A stretch of 64,000 bases of DNA, from the NCBI GenBank assembly GCA_945874145.1, contig CAMCFN010000006.1, forward strand, positions 16,164 to 80,163, read 5' to 3'. This DNA comes from Akkermansia muciniphila. GTDB taxonomy: Bacteria; Verrucomicrobiota; Verrucomicrobiia; Limisphaerales; SXTU01. Under the pieces are notes generated by a model that was given only the letters and a program-made list of their open reading frames with translations, was not told the origin of the DNA and ran no database searches. The first letter of the stretch is position 1. Each line of letters starts with the position of its first letter. Made by a program: the position numbers and the translations under genes. Positions 20,665 through 63,861 of the stretch are shown in pieces.

Positions 20665-20683
20665 GCGTGGAGAACGAAGGGGA

Positions 20684-20800
20684 AACGTTCAACGTTCAAC
20701 GTACAACTTCCAACGCTCAACGTTCAGAGCCTTGCGCTCGTGTGTCACGGCGCGTTCGTTGAGGGCTTTGGACGTTGAGCGTTGAGCGTTGGACGTTGAA
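20684..20800. repeat. heptamer-built hairpin element (arms 20684-20726 and 20769-20800)
   Basis: AACGTTCAACGTTCAACGTACAACTTCCAACGCTCAACGTTCA ... TGGACGTTGAGCGTTGAGCGTTGGACGTTGAA. Arms are (CAACGTT)n / (GAGCGTT)n and are reverse complementary. It lies between the PSCyt-DUF1553 stop and the DUF1501 start. Confidence 0.8.
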
Positions 20801-20838
20801 AGTTTCATTCCTAAAGAAGCGGTGTGTGCCGTTGGCTT

Positions 20839-58234: not shown

Positions 58235-58367
58235 GTCAGCGCGTTCCGCCTGACACTCCATTCAATCCGACCCGCCCAGCGGTATCTTCAAGTCAGTGGG
58301 ACAGGCGGGACGCACGGTCCTACTTTCACGCATTCCCAACCCCATCGCCGCCGTCTATCCTCTCGCC

Positions 58368-61300
58368 GTGACCAGTCGTTTCCTTCAACCTGTTGCCCCC
58401 TTCATCGCGTTGCTGGCGTTGGCCTTTCCCGCTGCTGCTGCACCCGCGCCGGACTTTCAACGCGAGGTTCGCCCCATCCTGTCCCGCCAGTGCTTCGCCT
58501 GCCACGGGCCGGACGAACACGCGCGCAAGGCCAATCTCCGCCTCGACCTCCGCGACGCCGCGCTCGCCCCCGCCAAGTCCGGCCAGCGCGCCGTCGTCCC
58601 TGGCAAGCCTGAGCAAAGCGAACTCGTCCGCCGCATCACGAGCACGGACCACAACAAGCTCATGCCGCCGCCGGAGACGAAGAAGCAGCTCACCGCTGCC
58701 GAGGCGGACACGCTCCGCCGCTGGGTCACCGGTGGCGCGGATTACCAGCCGCACTGGGCCTTCATCAAGCCGCAGCAGGCCGCGCTGCCGAAGGTGAAGC
58801 AAACGACTTGGCCGCAGAACGCCATTGACCTCTTCATCCTCGCGCGGCTGGAGCAGGAGGGCTTGAAGCCATCCGCGCCTGCCGATGACTACTCGTTGGT
58901 CCGCCGCCTTTACCTCGACTTGATTGGCCTTCCACCGACACCCGAAGAGGCCGACGCGTTCGTGAAGTCCGTTCAAATCGGCAATCGCCAATCGGCAATC
59001 GCCAATCTCGCCGACAAACTGCTCGCCTCCCCGCACTACGGCGAGCGTTGGGCGCGCAAGTGGCTCGACCTCGCCCGCTACGCCGACACCAACGGCTACG
59101 AGAAGGACCGCCCGCGCAACATCTGGCCCTGGCGCGACTGGGTCATCCGCGCGTTGAACGAGGATTTGCCCTTCGACCAGTTCACCCTCCAGCAGCTCGC
59201 TGGCGACCTGCTGCCAAACAACTCAAAACCCAAAACTCCCAACTCAGAACTCAGCCACCTCGTGGCGACCGGCTTCCATCGCAACACCATGCTCAACGAG
59301 GAAGGCGGCATTGACCCGCTGGAGTTCCGCTTCTACGCGATGGTGGACCGCGTCGCCACCACCGGCACGACCTGGCTCGGCCTCACCGTCGGCTGCGCGC
59401 AATGCCACACGCACAAGTTCGACCCCATCCCGCACACCGACTACTACGCGATGATGGCCTTCCTCAACAACGCCGACGAACCCGACCTCGACCTGCCGGA
59501 CGCCGCGTTGGATGAACAGCATCGCAAGAACCTAGAGCGCGCCGCCACCCTGCTGGCTGAGTTACCGAAGAAGTTTCCCGCGGACACAAACTCCACCCCG
59601 CCAACGCCCGGAGCCGAACATCTGGAGCGGAAGTTCGCTGCGTGGCGCAACGCCGAACGCGCCCGCGTCGTGCCGTGGACGACGCTGCGCCCGCATGAGG
59701 CCAAGTCCACCCTCCCGCTCCTCACCGTGCAGCCCGACGCCTCTGTCTTCGCCAGCGGCGACATCAGCAAGAACGACACTTACACGCTCAAGTTCCGCAA
59801 CGTCCCCGCCGGCACCACTGCGTTGCGCCTCGAAGCCTTGCCTGATGACCGCCTGCCCGCCCACGGCCCCGGCATGGCCTACTACGAAGGGCCAAAGGGC
59901 GACTTCTTCCTCGGCGAGTTCCGCGTCAAGTCCGGCGGCCAGCCGCTGAAGCTTGCGCGCGCATACCAAACCTACGCGAAGCTCTGGCTCGGCGGCGACC
60001 GTGCTTCCGCTGCATTGGCCATTGATGGCAATCCCGAGACGGGCTGGGGCGTCTTCGAGCGCTTCGGCGAACGGCACGTCGCGGTCTTCCACTTCGCCCA
60101 GCCACTCGCCGCTGCTGGCGAACTCGAAGTGCAGCTTCAGTTCGGCCGCCACTACGCCTGTTCGCTGGGCCGGTTCCGCATCTCGGCCACCGGCGATGCA
60201 CAGGCCACCGCGAGCGAACTGCCCGAAGCAGCCGACGCCTTGCTCCGCGTGCCGGAGGCGCAACTCACCGCCGCCCAACTCGCCCAATTGCGCGAGCAAT
60301 TCCTCCTTGTCGCACCTGAGCTGAAAGCCGCCCGCGCTGAGATTGAGAAGTTGCGCAAGCCGCCCGCGCATCAAACGACGCTCGTGCTGCGCGAGCGCCC
60401 GCCGGAGAACCCGCGCCCCACGCACCGGCATCATCGCGGCGAGTTTCTGTCGCCGAAGGAAGCCGTCGCGCCTGCCGTGCTCGGCGTGTTGAACCCGCTG
60501 CCACCTGGCGCACCGACGAACCGACTCGGCTTCGCGCAGTGGCTCGTCTCGCCGGAAAATCCGCTCACCGCCCGCGTGACCGTGAACCGCCAGTGGGCCG
60601 CGTTCTTCGGGAGCGGCATCGTGCGGACGACCGAGGACTTCGGCCTGCAAGGCGACGCGCCCACGCACCCGGAGTTGCTCGACTGGCTGGCGGTGGAGTT
60701 TACGAAGCAGGGCTGGTCACTGAAGCAGTTGCACAAGCTCATCGTGACCAGCGCCTCTTACCAACAGAGCAGCAAGTTTTCAGTGTTCGGTGCTCAGTCT
60801 TCAGTTGCGACCAGCGCACCGAAGCCCACTGAAAACTGGAAACAGAATACTGAACACTCCTCCCGCCTCGACCCGGATAACCGGCTGTTGAGTCGTTTCC
60901 CCCGCTCCCGCCTCGATGCCGAGCTCATCCGCGATTCCGTCCTGCGCGCCAGCGGCCAGCTCTCGCCGAAGATTGGCGGGCCGAGCGTCTATCCGCCGCA
61001 GCCCGCGAGCGTGACCTCGGAAGGCGTCTATGGCGGAAAGTCATGGAACGAAAGCCAGGGCGAAGACCGCTACCGTCGCGGCCTCTACACGTTCGCCAAG
61101 CGCTCCGCCCCCTACGCGATGTTCAACACCTTCGACGGCCCCAGCGGCGAAGCCTGCGTCGCCCGCCGCGACAGCTCGAACACGCCGCTCCAGGCCCTCA
61201 CGCTCCTCAACGACACCGTCATCCTCGAAGCCGCCCAAGCCCTCGGTCGCCAGCTCGCTGCGGAGCCCGGCACCATCGAGAGCCGCGTGGAAAACCTCTT

Positions 61301-61508
61301 CCGCCGCTGCCTCACCCGCCCGCCGTCCGCCGAGGAACGCACGCAGCTCGTGAAGTTCTTCGCGACCCAGCGCGCCCGCTTCGCCAGCGGCGAACTCAGG
61401 GCCGCCACCTTCGCCGGCAAAGGGGACGGGGACGCGAACGACCGCGCCGCCTGGACCGCCCTCGCCCGCGCGCTCCTGAACCTCGACGAGATGATTGCGA
61501 AGAGCTAG
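58368..61508 (+). CDS. PSCyt1 / DUF1549 / PSCyt2 / DUF1553 multidomain protein
   Basis: CFACHGPDEHARKANLRLD...MPP. IDLFILARLEQEGLKPSAPADDYSLVRRLYLDLIGLPP. CAQCHTHKFDP. RVTVNRQWAAFFGSGIVRTTEDFGLQGDAPTHPELLDWL. The track start is GTG 58296. GTG 58368 is preferred because it gives a signal peptide (VTSRFLQPVAPFIALLALAFPAAAAP). Confidence 0.9.
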   Translation: MTSRFLQPVAPFIALLALAFPAAAAPAPDFQREVRPILSRQCFACHGPDEHARKANLRLDLRDAALAPAKSGQRAVVPGKPEQSELVRRITSTDHNKLMPPPETKKQLTAAEADTLRRWVTGGADYQPHWAFIKPQQAALPKVKQTTWPQNAIDLFILARLEQEGLKPSAPADDYSLVRRLYLDLIGLPPTPEEADAFVKSVQIGNRQSAIANLADKLLASPHYGERWARKWLDLARYADTNGYEKDRPRNIWPWRDWVIRALNEDLPFDQFTLQQLAGDLLPNNSKPKTPNSELSHLVATGFHRNTMLNEEGGIDPLEFRFYAMVDRVATTGTTWLGLTVGCAQCHTHKFDPIPHTDYYAMMAFLNNADEPDLDLPDAALDEQHRKNLERAATLLAELPKKFPADTNSTPPTPGAEHLERKFAAWRNAERARVVPWTTLRPHEAKSTLPLLTVQPDASVFASGDISKNDTYTLKFRNVPAGTTALRLEALPDDRLPAHGPGMAYYEGPKGDFFLGEFRVKSGGQPLKLARAYQTYAKLWLGGDRASAALAIDGNPETGWGVFERFGERHVAVFHFAQPLAAAGELEVQLQFGRHYACSLGRFRISATGDAQATASELPEAADALLRVPEAQLTAAQLAQLREQFLLVAPELKAARAEIEKLRKPPAHQTTLVLRERPPENPRPTHRHHRGEFLSPKEAVAPAVLGVLNPLPPGAPTNRLGFAQWLVSPENPLTARVTVNRQWAAFFGSGIVRTTEDFGLQGDAPTHPELLDWLAVEFTKQGWSLKQLHKLIVTSASYQQSSKFSVFGAQSSVATSAPKPTENWKQNTEHSSRLDPDNRLLSRFPRSRLDAELIRDSVLRASGQLSPKIGGPSVYPPQPASVTSEGVYGGKSWNESQGEDRYRRGLYTFAKRSAPYAMFNTFDGPSGEACVARRDSSNTPLQALTLLNDTVILEAAQALGRQLAAEPGTIESRVENLFRRCLTRPPSAEERTQLVKFFATQRARFASGELRAATFAGKGDGDANDRAAWTALARALLNLDEMIAKS
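58976..59010. repeat. five-unit heptamer tract AATCGGC AATCGCC AATCGGC AATCGCC AATCTCG inside CDS
   Basis: Read directly. Encodes QIGNRQSAIANLA. Paralogous tract at 23241-23275. Confidence 0.8.
59220..59254. repeat. five-unit heptamer tract AACTCAA AACCCAA AACTCCC AACTCAG AACTCAG inside CDS
   Basis: Read directly. Encodes NNSKPKTPNSELS in a loop that differs among the three paralogues. Confidence 0.75.
60775..60858. repeat. heptamer-built hairpin element inserted in frame in the 58368-61508 CDS
   Basis: AGTTTTCAGTGTTCGGTGCTCAGTCTTCAGT (60775-60805) ... ACTGAAAACTGGAAACAGAATACTGAACACT (60828-60858). Translated as SKFSVFGAQSSVATSAPKPTENWKQNTEHS. Absent at this position from both paralogues. 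Confidence 0.8.
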
Positions 61509-61517
61509 CCTCACTTC

Positions 61518-62027
61518 ATGCCGATGCCACCCACAGCTTGGAGTAACCAGGACTTGGTGCTGTTTCATGGCACCACGGAAGGCTGCGCCCGGCGCATCAT
61601 GGCGGAAGGTGTTAGGCTCTCTGAAAGTAAGGTATGGACGGATTTCGGTCCGGGCTTCTACGCCTGCACCTACCGCCCGCAAGCGGCGGCTTGGGCGACG
61701 AGCCGCGCCCTGCGTTCCAACACGCCGGAGCGTCCGGCCGTGCTGGCCTTTCAGGTCAGCCGGGATGAACTGGCCACCCTCGAATCGCTAGTGTTCGTCC
61801 GCGCCGCATTGGACGCGGGGGATTATTGGAACTTCGTTGCCGCGTGTCGGTCTGGGTTGGGCCATCACGGACGCACCGGGACCAGCGCGTTTTACGATGT
61901 TGTCTTCGGCCCGGTCGTGGCTGACAACTATCTGCGCCGCAAGACGCACCTGACCTTTGACCAAGTCAGCTTTCACACAGAACGCGCAGTGCAAACCCTC
62001 ACGAGCCAACGATTCAGCATCCTATGA
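61518..62027 (+). CDS. DUF3990-like protein (possible ADP-ribosyltransferase-fold effector)
   Basis: LVLFHGT..., DFGPGFYAC...QAAAWA, YDVVFGPVVADNY and DQVSFHTERAVQTL follow the DUF3990 motif order as I recall it. The ATG lies 9 nt after the upstream stop. Confidence 0.7.
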   Translation: MPMPPTAWSNQDLVLFHGTTEGCARRIMAEGVRLSESKVWTDFGPGFYACTYRPQAAAWATSRALRSNTPERPAVLAFQVSRDELATLESLVFVRAALDAGDYWNFVAACRSGLGHHGRTGTSAFYDVVFGPVVADNYLRRKTHLTFDQVSFHTERAVQTLTSQRFSIL

Positions 62028-62428
62028 ACACCGAACAGAGCGCCTACTGGCATACCGTTCAGGAGACCATGGTCACCTTCCACGGCATCGATCGGGATGC
62101 AGCCAAGGCGAAAATCGAGCGCTATCGAGTGGCCTTGCTGGAGACAGGCGACGTGCTCGCGTTGGAGTTGGCCACGCACGAGGAGCCATTCTACCTAGCC
62201 ACCCAACTGGCTGGACGAAAGGTCGTCGAGCCCACCGCTTCACAGGCTAAGGTTTATGCCCAAATCATGAAGCGTTGCACGGAGGAGGCCGTTGCGTTCG
62301 GCGCGATGGATGAGCTCTTCCAGGAGACAAAGCAGCGACTGATACAAATCGAATCCAAGGCCAAAGGCGTGTTGCGGCGGAAACAGTCTGCCGAATCCCG
62401 ACGGCAAAAGCTGGCTGTTAGCGCATGA
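62024..62428 (+). CDS. hypothetical small helical protein (candidate partner/antitoxin of the DUF3990-like gene)
   Basis: 134 aa. ATGA overlaps at both ends (62024-27 and 62425-28). Sequence is predicted helical by eye (…KAKIERYRVALLETGDVLALELATHEEPFYLATQLAG…, lysine/arginine-rich tail). No family recognised. Confidence 0.6.
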   Translation: MNTEQSAYWHTVQETMVTFHGIDRDAAKAKIERYRVALLETGDVLALELATHEEPFYLATQLAGRKVVEPTASQAKVYAQIMKRCTEEAVAFGAMDELFQETKQRLIQIESKAKGVLRRKQSAESRRQKLAVSA

Positions 62429-63861
62429 CTAATTCACTCGCCACCGCCGCCAGCCGCCGCTGGTTCCTCGAACGCTGTGGCGTCGGCATCGGCAAAGTCG
62501 CGCTCGCCGGTTTGCTCACGGACGCCTTCGCCCGCCGTGCCAGTGCCGCGCCGGCAAGTCCCTTCCCCATCAAGCCGCCGCACTTCGCGCCGAAGGCCAA
62601 GCGCGTCATTCACATGTTCATGGCGGGCGCGCCGAGCCAGTTGGAGCTGTTCGACTACAAGCCCAAGCTCGCGGAACTGGAGGGCAAGCCCATCCCGCCC
62701 GAAGTCATCGGCGGGCAGCGCTACGCGTTCATCCGGTCGGACGCGGCGGTGCTGGGGCCACGCTTCAAGTTCGCCAAACACGGGCAGTGCGGCGCGGAGC
62801 TGGGCGAGACGTTGCCGCACCTCGCGAAGATTGTGGACGACATCGCCATCGTGAAGTCCATGCGCACGGACCAGTTCAACCACGCTCCGGCGCAGATTTT
62901 CTTCAACACCGGCTTCGGCCAGCCGGGGCGGCCCAGCATGGGCTCGTGGGTGCTCTACGGCCTCGGCGCGGAGACGAGCGACCTGCCGGCGTTCGTCGTG
63001 ATGAGCACGGGCAGCGGCATCAGCGGCGGCCCAGCGTGCTGGAGCAGCGGCGTGTTACCGGGCGTTTACACCGGCGTGCGCTTCCGCAATCAGGGCGACC
63101 CGATTCTCAACGTCTCAAGCCCGCCCGGTGCGGACGCGCAGTTGCAACGCGACTCGCTGGACTTGATTGGCAGCCTGAACCAGCGCCGCCTCACGCTCGA
63201 CGGCGACCCGGAAATCGCCACGCGCATCGCTGCCTATGAAATGGCCTTTCGCCTCCAGACCAGCGCACCGGACCTGATGGACTTGCGCGGCGAAACCAAG
63301 GCCACGCTCGACCTCTACGGCTGTGACCCCGCCAAGCCGTCCTTCGCACGCTCGTGCCTGCTAGCGCGGCGGATGGTCGAGCGCGGCGTGCGCTTCATCA
63401 ACATCTACAACGAAGGCTGGGACGCGCACTCGAACGTCGAGGGCAACGTCCGCAACAACTGCAAAACCACCGACCAGGCGAGCGCCGCGCTCGTCATGGA
63501 CCTCAAGCAGCGCGGCTTGCTCGACGACACGCTGGTCATCTGGGGCGGCGAGTTCGGTCGCACGCCGATGGTGGAGTCCAACGCCGCGCTGGGCCGCAGC
63601 CTCGGGCGCGACCATCACCCGCAGGCGTTCTCGATGTGGCTGGCCGGGGGCGGTGTAAAGCCCGGCCTTACCTACGGCCAGACCGACGAACTTGGCTTCC
63701 ACATCGTCGAGAACCCCGTCCACGTCCGCGACCTGCAAGCCACCATCCTCCACCAACTCGGCCTGGACCATGAACGCCTCTCCATCCGCTTCCAAGGCTT
63801 GGACTTGAAGCTCACCGGCGTGGAGCCGTGCGAGGTGGTGAAGGGCATTCTGGCCGCCTGA
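62425..63861 (+). CDS. DUF1501 domain protein (sulfatase-fold, Tat signal)
   Basis: SRRWFLERCGVGIGKVALAGLL. GAPSQLELFDYKP...WDAHSN...GEFGRTP...GRDHH. Confidence 0.9.
   Translation: MTNSLATAASRRWFLERCGVGIGKVALAGLLTDAFARRASAAPASPFPIKPPHFAPKAKRVIHMFMAGAPSQLELFDYKPKLAELEGKPIPPEVIGGQRYAFIRSDAAVLGPRFKFAKHGQCGAELGETLPHLAKIVDDIAIVKSMRTDQFNHAPAQIFFNTGFGQPGRPSMGSWVLYGLGAETSDLPAFVVMSTGSGISGGPACWSSGVLPGVYTGVRFRNQGDPILNVSSPPGADAQLQRDSLDLIGSLNQRRLTLDGDPEIATRIAAYEMAFRLQTSAPDLMDLRGETKATLDLYGCDPAKPSFARSCLLARRMVERGVRFINIYNEGWDAHSNVEGNVRNNCKTTDQASAALVMDLKQRGLLDDTLVIWGGEFGRTPMVESNAALGRSLGRDHHPQAFSMWLAGGGVKPGLTYGQTDELGFHIVENPVHVRDLQATILHQLGLDHERLSIRFQGLDLKLTGVEPCEVVKGILAA

Follow-up and report, generated by a model that had tools for sequence, protein, structure and literature searches.

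DUF3990 (PF13151) is a widespread protein family of the ADP-ribosyltransferase (ART) clan, whose members occur as stand-alone proteins, beside small DUF3791 (PF12668) partners, or as the toxin tips of type VI secretion system (T6SS) Rhs proteins. The family is already known as an uncharacterised one, and toxin-antitoxin (TA) systems with ART toxins are already known as a kind, as in DarTG and ParST. Here we describe a two-gene cassette consisting of a DUF3990 gene (ORF1) and a small gene from an unannotated helical family (ORF2), which sits between a DUF1553 gene and a DUF1501 gene in a 64,000-nt stretch of contig CAMCFN010000006.1. We call this whole stretch the window, coordinates are positions within it, and comparison loci are identified by L numbers. 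The reading we favour, with a probability of about 0.68, is that of a mobile TA-type module in which a stand-alone ART-fold DUF3990 toxin would be neutralised by a translationally coupled helical partner of a new family, the two being lodged in a host operon, and expressed with it, at a recombination hotspot. A TA-like or defence cassette is what the original prediction for this locus had proposed, and comparative genomics is what supports it.

The closest described systems each share some features with the window pair. The DUF3990/DUF3791 pairs found in Firmicutes/Bacteroidota-type genomes have the same Pfam family for the large protein and a small helical partner adjoining on the same strand, but the window partner is not a DUF3791 protein and the order in pairs of the window type is always DUF3990 first. 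The searchable literature has no functional characterisation of DUF3990/DUF3791 pairs. DarT-DarG and ParT-ParS are mobile two-gene modules that combine a small ART-fold protein with an adjacent, co-transcribed neutraliser, as is predicted for the window pair, and DarTG has the same toxin-first order. ParT (6d0h, probability 0.75) is among the best structural matches of a low-confidence ORF1 model, but ORF1 has no sequence-family relationship to DarT or ParT, and no DarT or ParT Pfam match. DarG acts as a macrodomain hydrolase and undoes the modification, whereas ORF2 contains a helical domain of about 100 aa without an enzyme-like or known fold. In the T6SS Rhs toxins of Serratia (Rhs5) and Enterobacter (RhsA), DUF3990 is the C-terminal domain, and after it comes a small protective gene particular to the family, a putative immunity gene (PMC4524185; PMC10763514). 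Those DUF3990 domains are fused to a delivery region, unlike the stand-alone ORF1, and the literature on them gives the function of DUF3990 as unknown. The PADLOC candidate phage-defence systems PDC-M10 and PDC-M13 have DUF3990-type components that match ORF1, but no component that matches ORF2. Finally, HicBA and VapBC-type modules occupy the same DUF1553-DUF1501 slot in sister species (L014 for the first; L018, L019 and L022 for the second), co-oriented with the operon and with frames that overlap or nearly abut; they differ in belonging to unrelated protein families and in having the antitoxin first. New with respect to all these systems are the partner family, which has no annotation or fold match, the conserved phylum-spanning unit that it forms with a DUF3990 subfamily, and the behaviour of the junction as a cassette slot.

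ORF1 and its ADP-ribosyltransferase features

ORF1 (61518..62027, + strand, ATG start at 61518) encodes a DUF3990 protein of 169 aa, predicted to be an ART-fold toxin by Pfam, PADLOC and PDB profile matches and weak Foldseek matches. The family assignment, which the original prediction had made from the order of a few motifs, holds in an HMM search: ORF1 matches PF13151 at residues 14-139 with 55.5 bits (E 6.8e-15) for a gathering cutoff of 32.2, and a precomputed PF13151 match is present in all 9 close homologues. The motifs in question (LVLFHGT, DFGPGFYAC, YDVVFGPVVADNY and DQVSFHTERA) are all there. ORF1 also matches three PADLOC defence-candidate models: PDC-M13A (E 6.4e-15), PDC-M13B (1e-14) and PDC-M10A (9e-11). 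The grouping of DUF3990 with ART-fold proteins, which the original prediction had mentioned along with the motifs, is that of the Pfam ART clan (PMC7955679).

The ART relationship is best seen with a profile built from ORF1 and nine homologues (10 sequences, alignment A1). Searched against PDB sequences, this profile finds ARTs of the His-Tyr clade in 50 of its 52 matches, which include PARP10 (E 1e-3), exotoxin A, PARP2, PARP12, PARP15, diphtheria toxin and, weakly (E 0.5-2), Tpt1. The profile aligns LVLFHGT...DFGPGFYA of ORF1 with VLYHGTT...YGKGVYFA of PARP10, and the HGT and GxGxY motifs that it brings together are retained in the DUF3990 partners at other loci. From this alignment to the HGT and GKGVYFA elements, His17 (61566-61568, + strand) and Tyr48 (61659-61661, + strand) are the predicted NAD-binding His and Tyr of ORF1. 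His17 is nearly invariant in A1, and Tyr48 is invariant there and nearly so in alignment A4. The catalytic triad that the original prediction suggested looking for has two members with ART counterparts and a third with a candidate, Asp127 (61896-61898, + strand), which lies in YDVVFGP on a predicted strand and is the best positional choice. Asp148 and His153 are invariant and Gln149 nearly so; the alignments to solved ARTs end at residue 85. A Foldseek search with the ORF1 model returns ARTs almost exclusively among its top matches (exotoxin A, ParT, cholix toxin, tankyrase and the RhsP2 toxin), the best being exotoxin A with E 0.04, probability 0.93 and TM 0.46. We use the model and these matches as weak support only. 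A PDB search with the ORF1 sequence by itself found just a designed repeat protein (Tet4), which we judged spurious, and NCBIfam and PHROGs gave noise only, for ORF1 as for ORF2.

The 169 aa of ORF1 consist of the DUF3990 domain only, and no Rhs, PAAR or YD delivery region is found in it. Since it stands alone without such a region, we take ORF1 to be an intracellular module and not a secreted effector.

The partner family and the two-gene module

ORF2 (62024..62428, + strand) encodes 134 aa, and its start overlaps the stop of ORF1 in an ATGA (62024..62027, + strand) typical of translational coupling. We predict that it acts as an antitoxin or neutraliser. The original prediction called ORF2 helical and unrecognised, and it is both. 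There is no family match in Pfam, NCBIfam, PADLOC or PHROGs, nor a meaningful match in a PDB sequence search with ORF2 alone. The AlphaFold (AF2) model, built from the family alignment, has pLDDT 94.3 and consists of four short helices followed by a long C-terminal helix; Foldseek finds no significant structural neighbour for it in the PDB or in the viral BFVD. While a word-indexed search reports seven close relatives only, an exhaustive HMMER profile search collects 63 cluster representatives of the ORF2 family, mostly of about 100 aa. Common to the family are W9 and an H-x-E-P-F-Y-L-A motif (H52-x-E54-P-F-Y-L-A in ORF2). The conserved domain covers residues 1 to about 98, and the long, basic C-terminal helix (residues 72-133) is peculiar to the clade of ORF2. 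A dN/dS of about 0.14-0.18 with respect to two diverged alleles, together with the confident predicted fold, indicates that ORF2 is a real protein under purifying selection.

Several possible relationships of the ORF2 family were examined and discarded. Of 46 members searched, not one falls in a Pfam family, DUF3791 included (E<=0.01; E<=1 for ORF2 alone). Remote homology to the DUF3791 partners is rejected with an hhalign probability of 0.2%, and remote homology to a second family of small neighbours of gut-type DUF3990 genes with one of 0.4%. One homologue matches Pfam DUF6192 at 25.1 bits, below the cutoff of 27, and the match is missing in the other 45 members; we dropped it. A supposed relative of 439 aa (P0022) is a low-complexity repeat and was also discarded. 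A 209-aa protein (P0079, L103:584-1213) has two ORF2-family domains in tandem; the gene 5' of it resembles one for a deoxycytidylate deaminase and was excluded as a DUF3990 gene.

The association of the two families extends well beyond the window. Seven distant relatives of ORF2 were examined, and five have a DUF3990 gene directly 5', mostly with a 4-nt overlap. These pairs are found in Longimicrobium (Gemmatimonadota) after an acyl-CoA carboxyltransferase gene, in operons beside a proline racemase gene, after an oligopeptide ABC transporter, and adjoining a DUF433/PIN_10 pair. The 46-sequence ORF2 alignment has no block conserved enough to scan metagenomes with, and we seeded the scan with DUF3990 motifs from the ORF1 alignment. 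It identified 72 DUF3990 loci, 42 of which have an ORF2-family gene immediately 3' on the same strand. In the subset of the 40 closest loci, 37 have enough downstream sequence, and the DUF3990 gene is paired with an ORF2-family gene in 34 of them, typically with a 4-nt overlap. The overlap is the one seen in the window for L097, L100, L104, L106, L109, L113, L115, L117, L118, L120, L123 and L129. In all, the two-gene module appears in more than 40 contexts with neither DUF1553 nor DUF1501 nearby, in several phyla, and always with DUF3990 first. Two small, adjacent, co-directional and overlapping genes that recur across unrelated contexts are the layout of a type II TA system. This pairing in unrelated contexts and phyla argues that DUF3990 and the ORF2 family form an autonomous mobile two-gene module and are not an accessory of DUF1553 and DUF1501. 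The pairing with DUF3791 that the original prediction had mentioned is found for distant gut-type DUF3990 genes, which have true DUF3791 partners in L151, L155, L160, L161 and L163 (Pfam E 1e-9 to 3e-21), but it does not extend to the subfamily of ORF1, whose partner is of a different family.

Some of these neighbourhoods have further features. In L102 (669-2169), the module lies beside a DUF433 gene with a PIN_10/DUF5615 gene adjoining, and in L095/L096 (4001-4846 and 6908-7581) an orphan ORF2 homologue lies beside DUF433 genes with a MazE-PIN pair nearby. Both neighbourhoods, which are in other phyla, resemble small TA islands. Seven of the gut-type DUF3990 loci (L159, L160, L161, L163, L165, L167 and L169) have a second conserved small helical family besides DUF3791 (alignment A5), with about 80 aa, the pattern ...KYN....EA.R.F..S.TY.ML.D...LW... 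and no Pfam match. From the presence of this family beside DUF3791, some DUF3990 systems may have three genes.

A number of loci appear to be losing the module, and they lose it from the DUF3990 side. In L008, a near-identical population variant of the window, a frameshifting deletion removes 182 bp of ORF1 (61807..61988, + strand, in the pairwise alignment) and no DUF3990 is called, with ORF2 100% identical. Longimicrobium loci have either a DUF3990 cut down to 91 aa beside an intact partner, the state of L093/L094, or an orphan partner, the state of L095/L096. L099 has an intact partner with no called DUF3990 gene 5' of it. Loss of ORF1 with retention of ORF2 is expected if ORF1 is harmful by itself and ORF2 protective. 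A different arrangement is that of L004 (8001-8405), on a 212-kb contig, where a solitary, C-terminally truncated DUF3990 gene of 134 aa, 47% identical to ORF1 and without an ORF2-family partner, has a dicarboxylate symporter gene on one side and dxs on the other. This copy is probably in decay.

The DUF1553-DUF1501 junction

Scanning the GTDB species representatives with the DUF1501 protein gives 80 loci, of which 60 have a DUF1553 gene 5' on the same strand. The two genes abut (<=150 nt) in 40 of these 60 pairs and have a wider gap in the other 20. Within this survey, the ORF1+ORF2 cassette is present in one Limisphaerales clade only, in which the orthologous DUF1501 proteins are 93-97% identical, and the nearest relative of the window by DUF1501 nucleotide identity (L013, 94.0%) has an empty site. 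The two genes are not universal between DUF1553 and DUF1501 among the pairs surveyed, which favours the insertion into a conserved pair that the original prediction had put forward.

In the same clade, this one slot has several contents. It is empty in L013, L016 and L020. In L014, it holds HicB_lk_antitox and HicA_toxin genes, both above the Pfam cutoffs. In L018, L019 and L022, it holds an antitoxin-like (Phd-like) gene of 80-92 aa and a PIN-like gene of 156 aa; the PIN call has 20-21.7 bits, below the Pfam cutoff of 23.6, and was not confirmed by NCBIfam or by PDB sequence and profile searches. A DUF3990 gene with an ORF2 gene fills it in the window, in L001/L015 and in L176-L178. The junction of L017 (2731-3126) has a 396-nt filler of 47% GC between flanks of about 65%, with zero ORFs on the plus strand and an 85-aa hydrophobic ORF on the minus strand; it may be what is left of another cassette, or a gene for a small membrane protein. 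The insert starts right after the DUF1553 stop codon in every case. In more distant pairs, the wider gaps contain UPF0175 with DUF3368 (a PIN-like TA pair), DUF433, an HNH nuclease (L046), YhcG/DUF1016 nucleases (L048, L052), or a 961-aa C5-methylase/Eco57I-like restriction-modification protein (L031). At least 10 of the 20 junctions expanded beyond 150 nt carry TA, nuclease or restriction-modification genes (L013-L092). From these counts, DUF1553-DUF1501 junctions may be a general hotspot for selfish and defence genes.

The sequence next to the slot suggests how its contents could change. The first 50 nt or so of DUF1501 (62425-62480), which encode the n-region of a twin-arginine signal, occur as two alleles. 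The allele ...SRRWFLERCGVG is that of the window and of all loci with DUF3990 or PIN-like cassettes (L001, L018, L019, L022, L176, L178), and of these only; the allele ...TRRHFFRNCGVG is common to the empty and HicBA loci. The phylogeny of the DUF1501 gene body does not track this split. That loci bearing DUF3990 and loci bearing PIN-like genes share an n-region allele suggests cassette replacement by recombination in the flanks. The DUF3990-ORF2 cassettes themselves come in three diverged alleles, of the window, L001 and L176-L178 types, with the same slot, identical geometry and flanks 88-95% identical. ORF2 of the L001 type is 69% identical to that of the window, and the L176-L178 type is 55% identical in ORF1 and 63% in ORF2. 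Between the window and L176, synonymous divergence (pS) is 0.65-0.78 in the cassette and 0.28-0.29 in both flanks, with the same trend for the PIN-like cassettes; a cassette pS above that of the flanks fits alleles that are old or laterally exchanged.

In the window, the slot belongs to an operon on the + strand. The 5' flank, outside the cassette, is a DUF1553 gene of 1070 aa (58296..61508, + strand) with the PSCyt1 (E 2.6e-19), PSCyt2 (E 2.5e-83) and PSD1 (E 2.4e-97) Pfam domains, and its sister-species orthologues are 74-88% identical. Its TAG stop (61506-61508, + strand) is followed by a 9-nt spacer (61509..61517, + strand) that forms the left boundary of the insert: in the junction alignment, homology with the empty-site loci stops at the DUF1553 stop codon, and L176-L178 have the same spacing. 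At the right end of the inserted genes, the ORF2 stop overlaps the DUF1501 start in a second ATGA (62425..62428, + strand), also seen in L001 and L176-L178. The DUF1501 gene (62425..63861, + strand, 478 aa, Pfam E 3.3e-151) is the 3' flank. The 916 nt of the insert (61509-62424), the 9-nt gap, the sizes of the two ORFs and both ATGA overlaps are confirmed as originally described. So is a composition richer in A/T at third codon positions. The third-position GC (GC3) of ORF1 and ORF2 is 0.712 and 0.704 for 0.835 and 0.887 in the flanking genes; these two values rank lowest in a selection of 45 ORFs from all over the window (mean 0.824, sd 0.055), and overall GC falls to 0.58 at the insert. A scan of the surroundings for target-site duplications and inverted repeats found short chance-level repeats only, and we do not claim a transposition-type signature for the insert.

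The other two DUF1553-DUF1501 pairs of the window have spacers of 6 nt (TAA TTGACC ATG) and 174 nt, in agreement with the 6 nt and approximately 175 nt reported before. The longer one (20665-20838, - strand) is a near-perfect hairpin of CAACGT/CAACGC hexamer repeats (CAACGY, predicted dG -65 kcal/mol), which may be a repeat element, or a strong attenuator or terminator inside that operon.

Readings of the cassette

The favoured TA-type reading implies the following mechanism. ORF1 would be a DUF3990 enzyme of the ART superfamily, in the PARP/diphtheria-toxin-like His-Tyr branch, that transfers ADP-ribose from NAD+ to an essential macromolecule of the cell or of a phage, by analogy a protein or a nucleic acid, and this modification would arrest growth. 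ORF2 would be translated by coupling from the ORF1 mRNA, and would bind and neutralise ORF1 as a protein antitoxin or immunity partner. A search around the insert for promoters and terminators gave two weak promoter-like sites and zero terminators; with no recognisable promoter or terminator of its own and a position exactly between the DUF1553 stop and the DUF1501 start, the cassette is probably transcribed by read-through from the host operon, and translation of DUF1501 would be coupled to that of ORF2. The junction would act as a recombination hotspot at which cassette alleles are exchanged or lost and the flanks conserved. The biological role would be addiction or phage defence.

A number of observations weigh against this mechanism. 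The candidate third catalytic residue, Asp127, is an Ala in the homologue P0005. The AF2 model of ORF1, built from 10 sequences, is poor (pLDDT 55.9) and gives weak fold matches, with E 0.04 at best. The searchable literature contains no demonstration of toxicity, ART activity or a target for any DUF3990 protein. No DNA-binding domain can be recognised in ORF2, nor does it resemble known antitoxin or immunity proteins; in particular, Pfam and NCBIfam find in it none of the autoregulatory DNA-binding domains HTH, RHH, AbrB or Phd. Such a domain is common, not universal, among the antitoxins of TA systems. A toxin-first order is the less common one in type II TA systems. The deletion in L008 comes from just one metagenome scaffold and could have arisen in the assembly, and the higher pS of the cassettes may come in part from weaker codon bias.

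A more specific version of the TA-type reading, which we consider rather doubtful, is that the pair is an abortive-infection or anti-phage system in which ORF2 restrains the ART until phage infection, as in DarTG or CmdTAC. In its favour are the PADLOC matches of ORF1 to PDC-M13A/B and PDC-M10A (E 1e-14 to 1e-10) and the restriction-modification and nuclease genes at equivalent junctions (L031, L046, L048, L052), and two reports (PMC11618068; PMC11825919) describe known ART toxin systems that defend against phage, with CmdTAC as an example. However, the PDC systems are themselves just candidates, the locus is not callable as PDC-M10 or PDC-M13 since ORF2 matches no PADLOC model, and the window has no phage or defence-island context around the cassette. 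More distant from the TA-type reading, and improbable in our view, is that ORF1 is a non-toxic housekeeping or detoxifying enzyme with an ART fold, acting on small molecules as Arr does or on RNA 2'-phosphates as Tpt1 does, with ORF2 as a regulator, chaperone or substrate adaptor, and that the pair has spread by usefulness and not by addiction. The ART clan does include enzymes that are not toxins, Tpt1 RNA 2'-phosphotransferases are among the weak profile matches, no clear Glu stands at the third catalytic position, and ORF2 is without antitoxin-like features. What tells against a useful enzyme is that bona fide TA families fill the same slot in sister species, that the pair has a patchy, mobile distribution and an atypical composition, that DUF3990 serves as an Rhs toxin tip, and the direction of decay, which repeatedly drops ORF1 and keeps ORF2, the opposite of what an enzyme and its helper should do.

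The original prediction had also offered the alternative that the two genes serve the DUF1553-DUF1501 pair as lineage-specific accessories. They could then be, for instance, maturation or regulatory factors for these exported proteins. The tight translational coupling on both sides, and an arrangement kept in at least three diverged cassette lineages of the same slot (window, L001, L176-L178), would agree with such a role. The distribution effectively refutes it, and we give it next to no credence: 40 of the 60 pairs are directly adjacent, the site is empty in a relative as close as L013, the other two pairs of the window do without the genes, the slot is filled by HicBA or an antitoxin-like/PIN-like pair in other species, and the module is found in those more than 40 contexts where its supposed clients are absent.

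The TA-type reading also gains from the slot itself. Across about ten sister species, a single junction takes at least four alternative contents. This amounts to a replacement experiment made by nature, of use for annotation, in which a TA-like role can be assigned by position. Beyond the locus, we make a joint proposal that is tentative, leaning slightly towards doubt: that DUF3990 and the ORF2 family constitute a previously unrecognised, phylum-spanning family of ART-based TA or defence systems, with an antitoxin fold that has no solved or predicted viral counterpart, and that the DUF1553-DUF1501 stop/start junction of Verrucomicrobiota and Planctomycetota is a cassette slot. If the latter is true, TA, nuclease and restriction-modification genes would be swapped there by flank recombination in a frame-compatible and translationally coupled manner, and the junction would be a mini defence island embedded in an operon that hijacks the expression of its host. 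This suggests the DUF1553-DUF1501 junctions of the Planctomycetota-Verrucomicrobiota as places to mine for small selfish and defence modules. For the DUF3990 family, the window locus and its roughly 40 relatives offer a clean, minimal system of two genes, in which the partner has a confidently predicted, novel fold, and this makes the family testable. ART toxins have repeatedly revealed new targets (ssDNA, mRNA, structured RNA and Prs), and with that record a new ART branch is worth an experiment.

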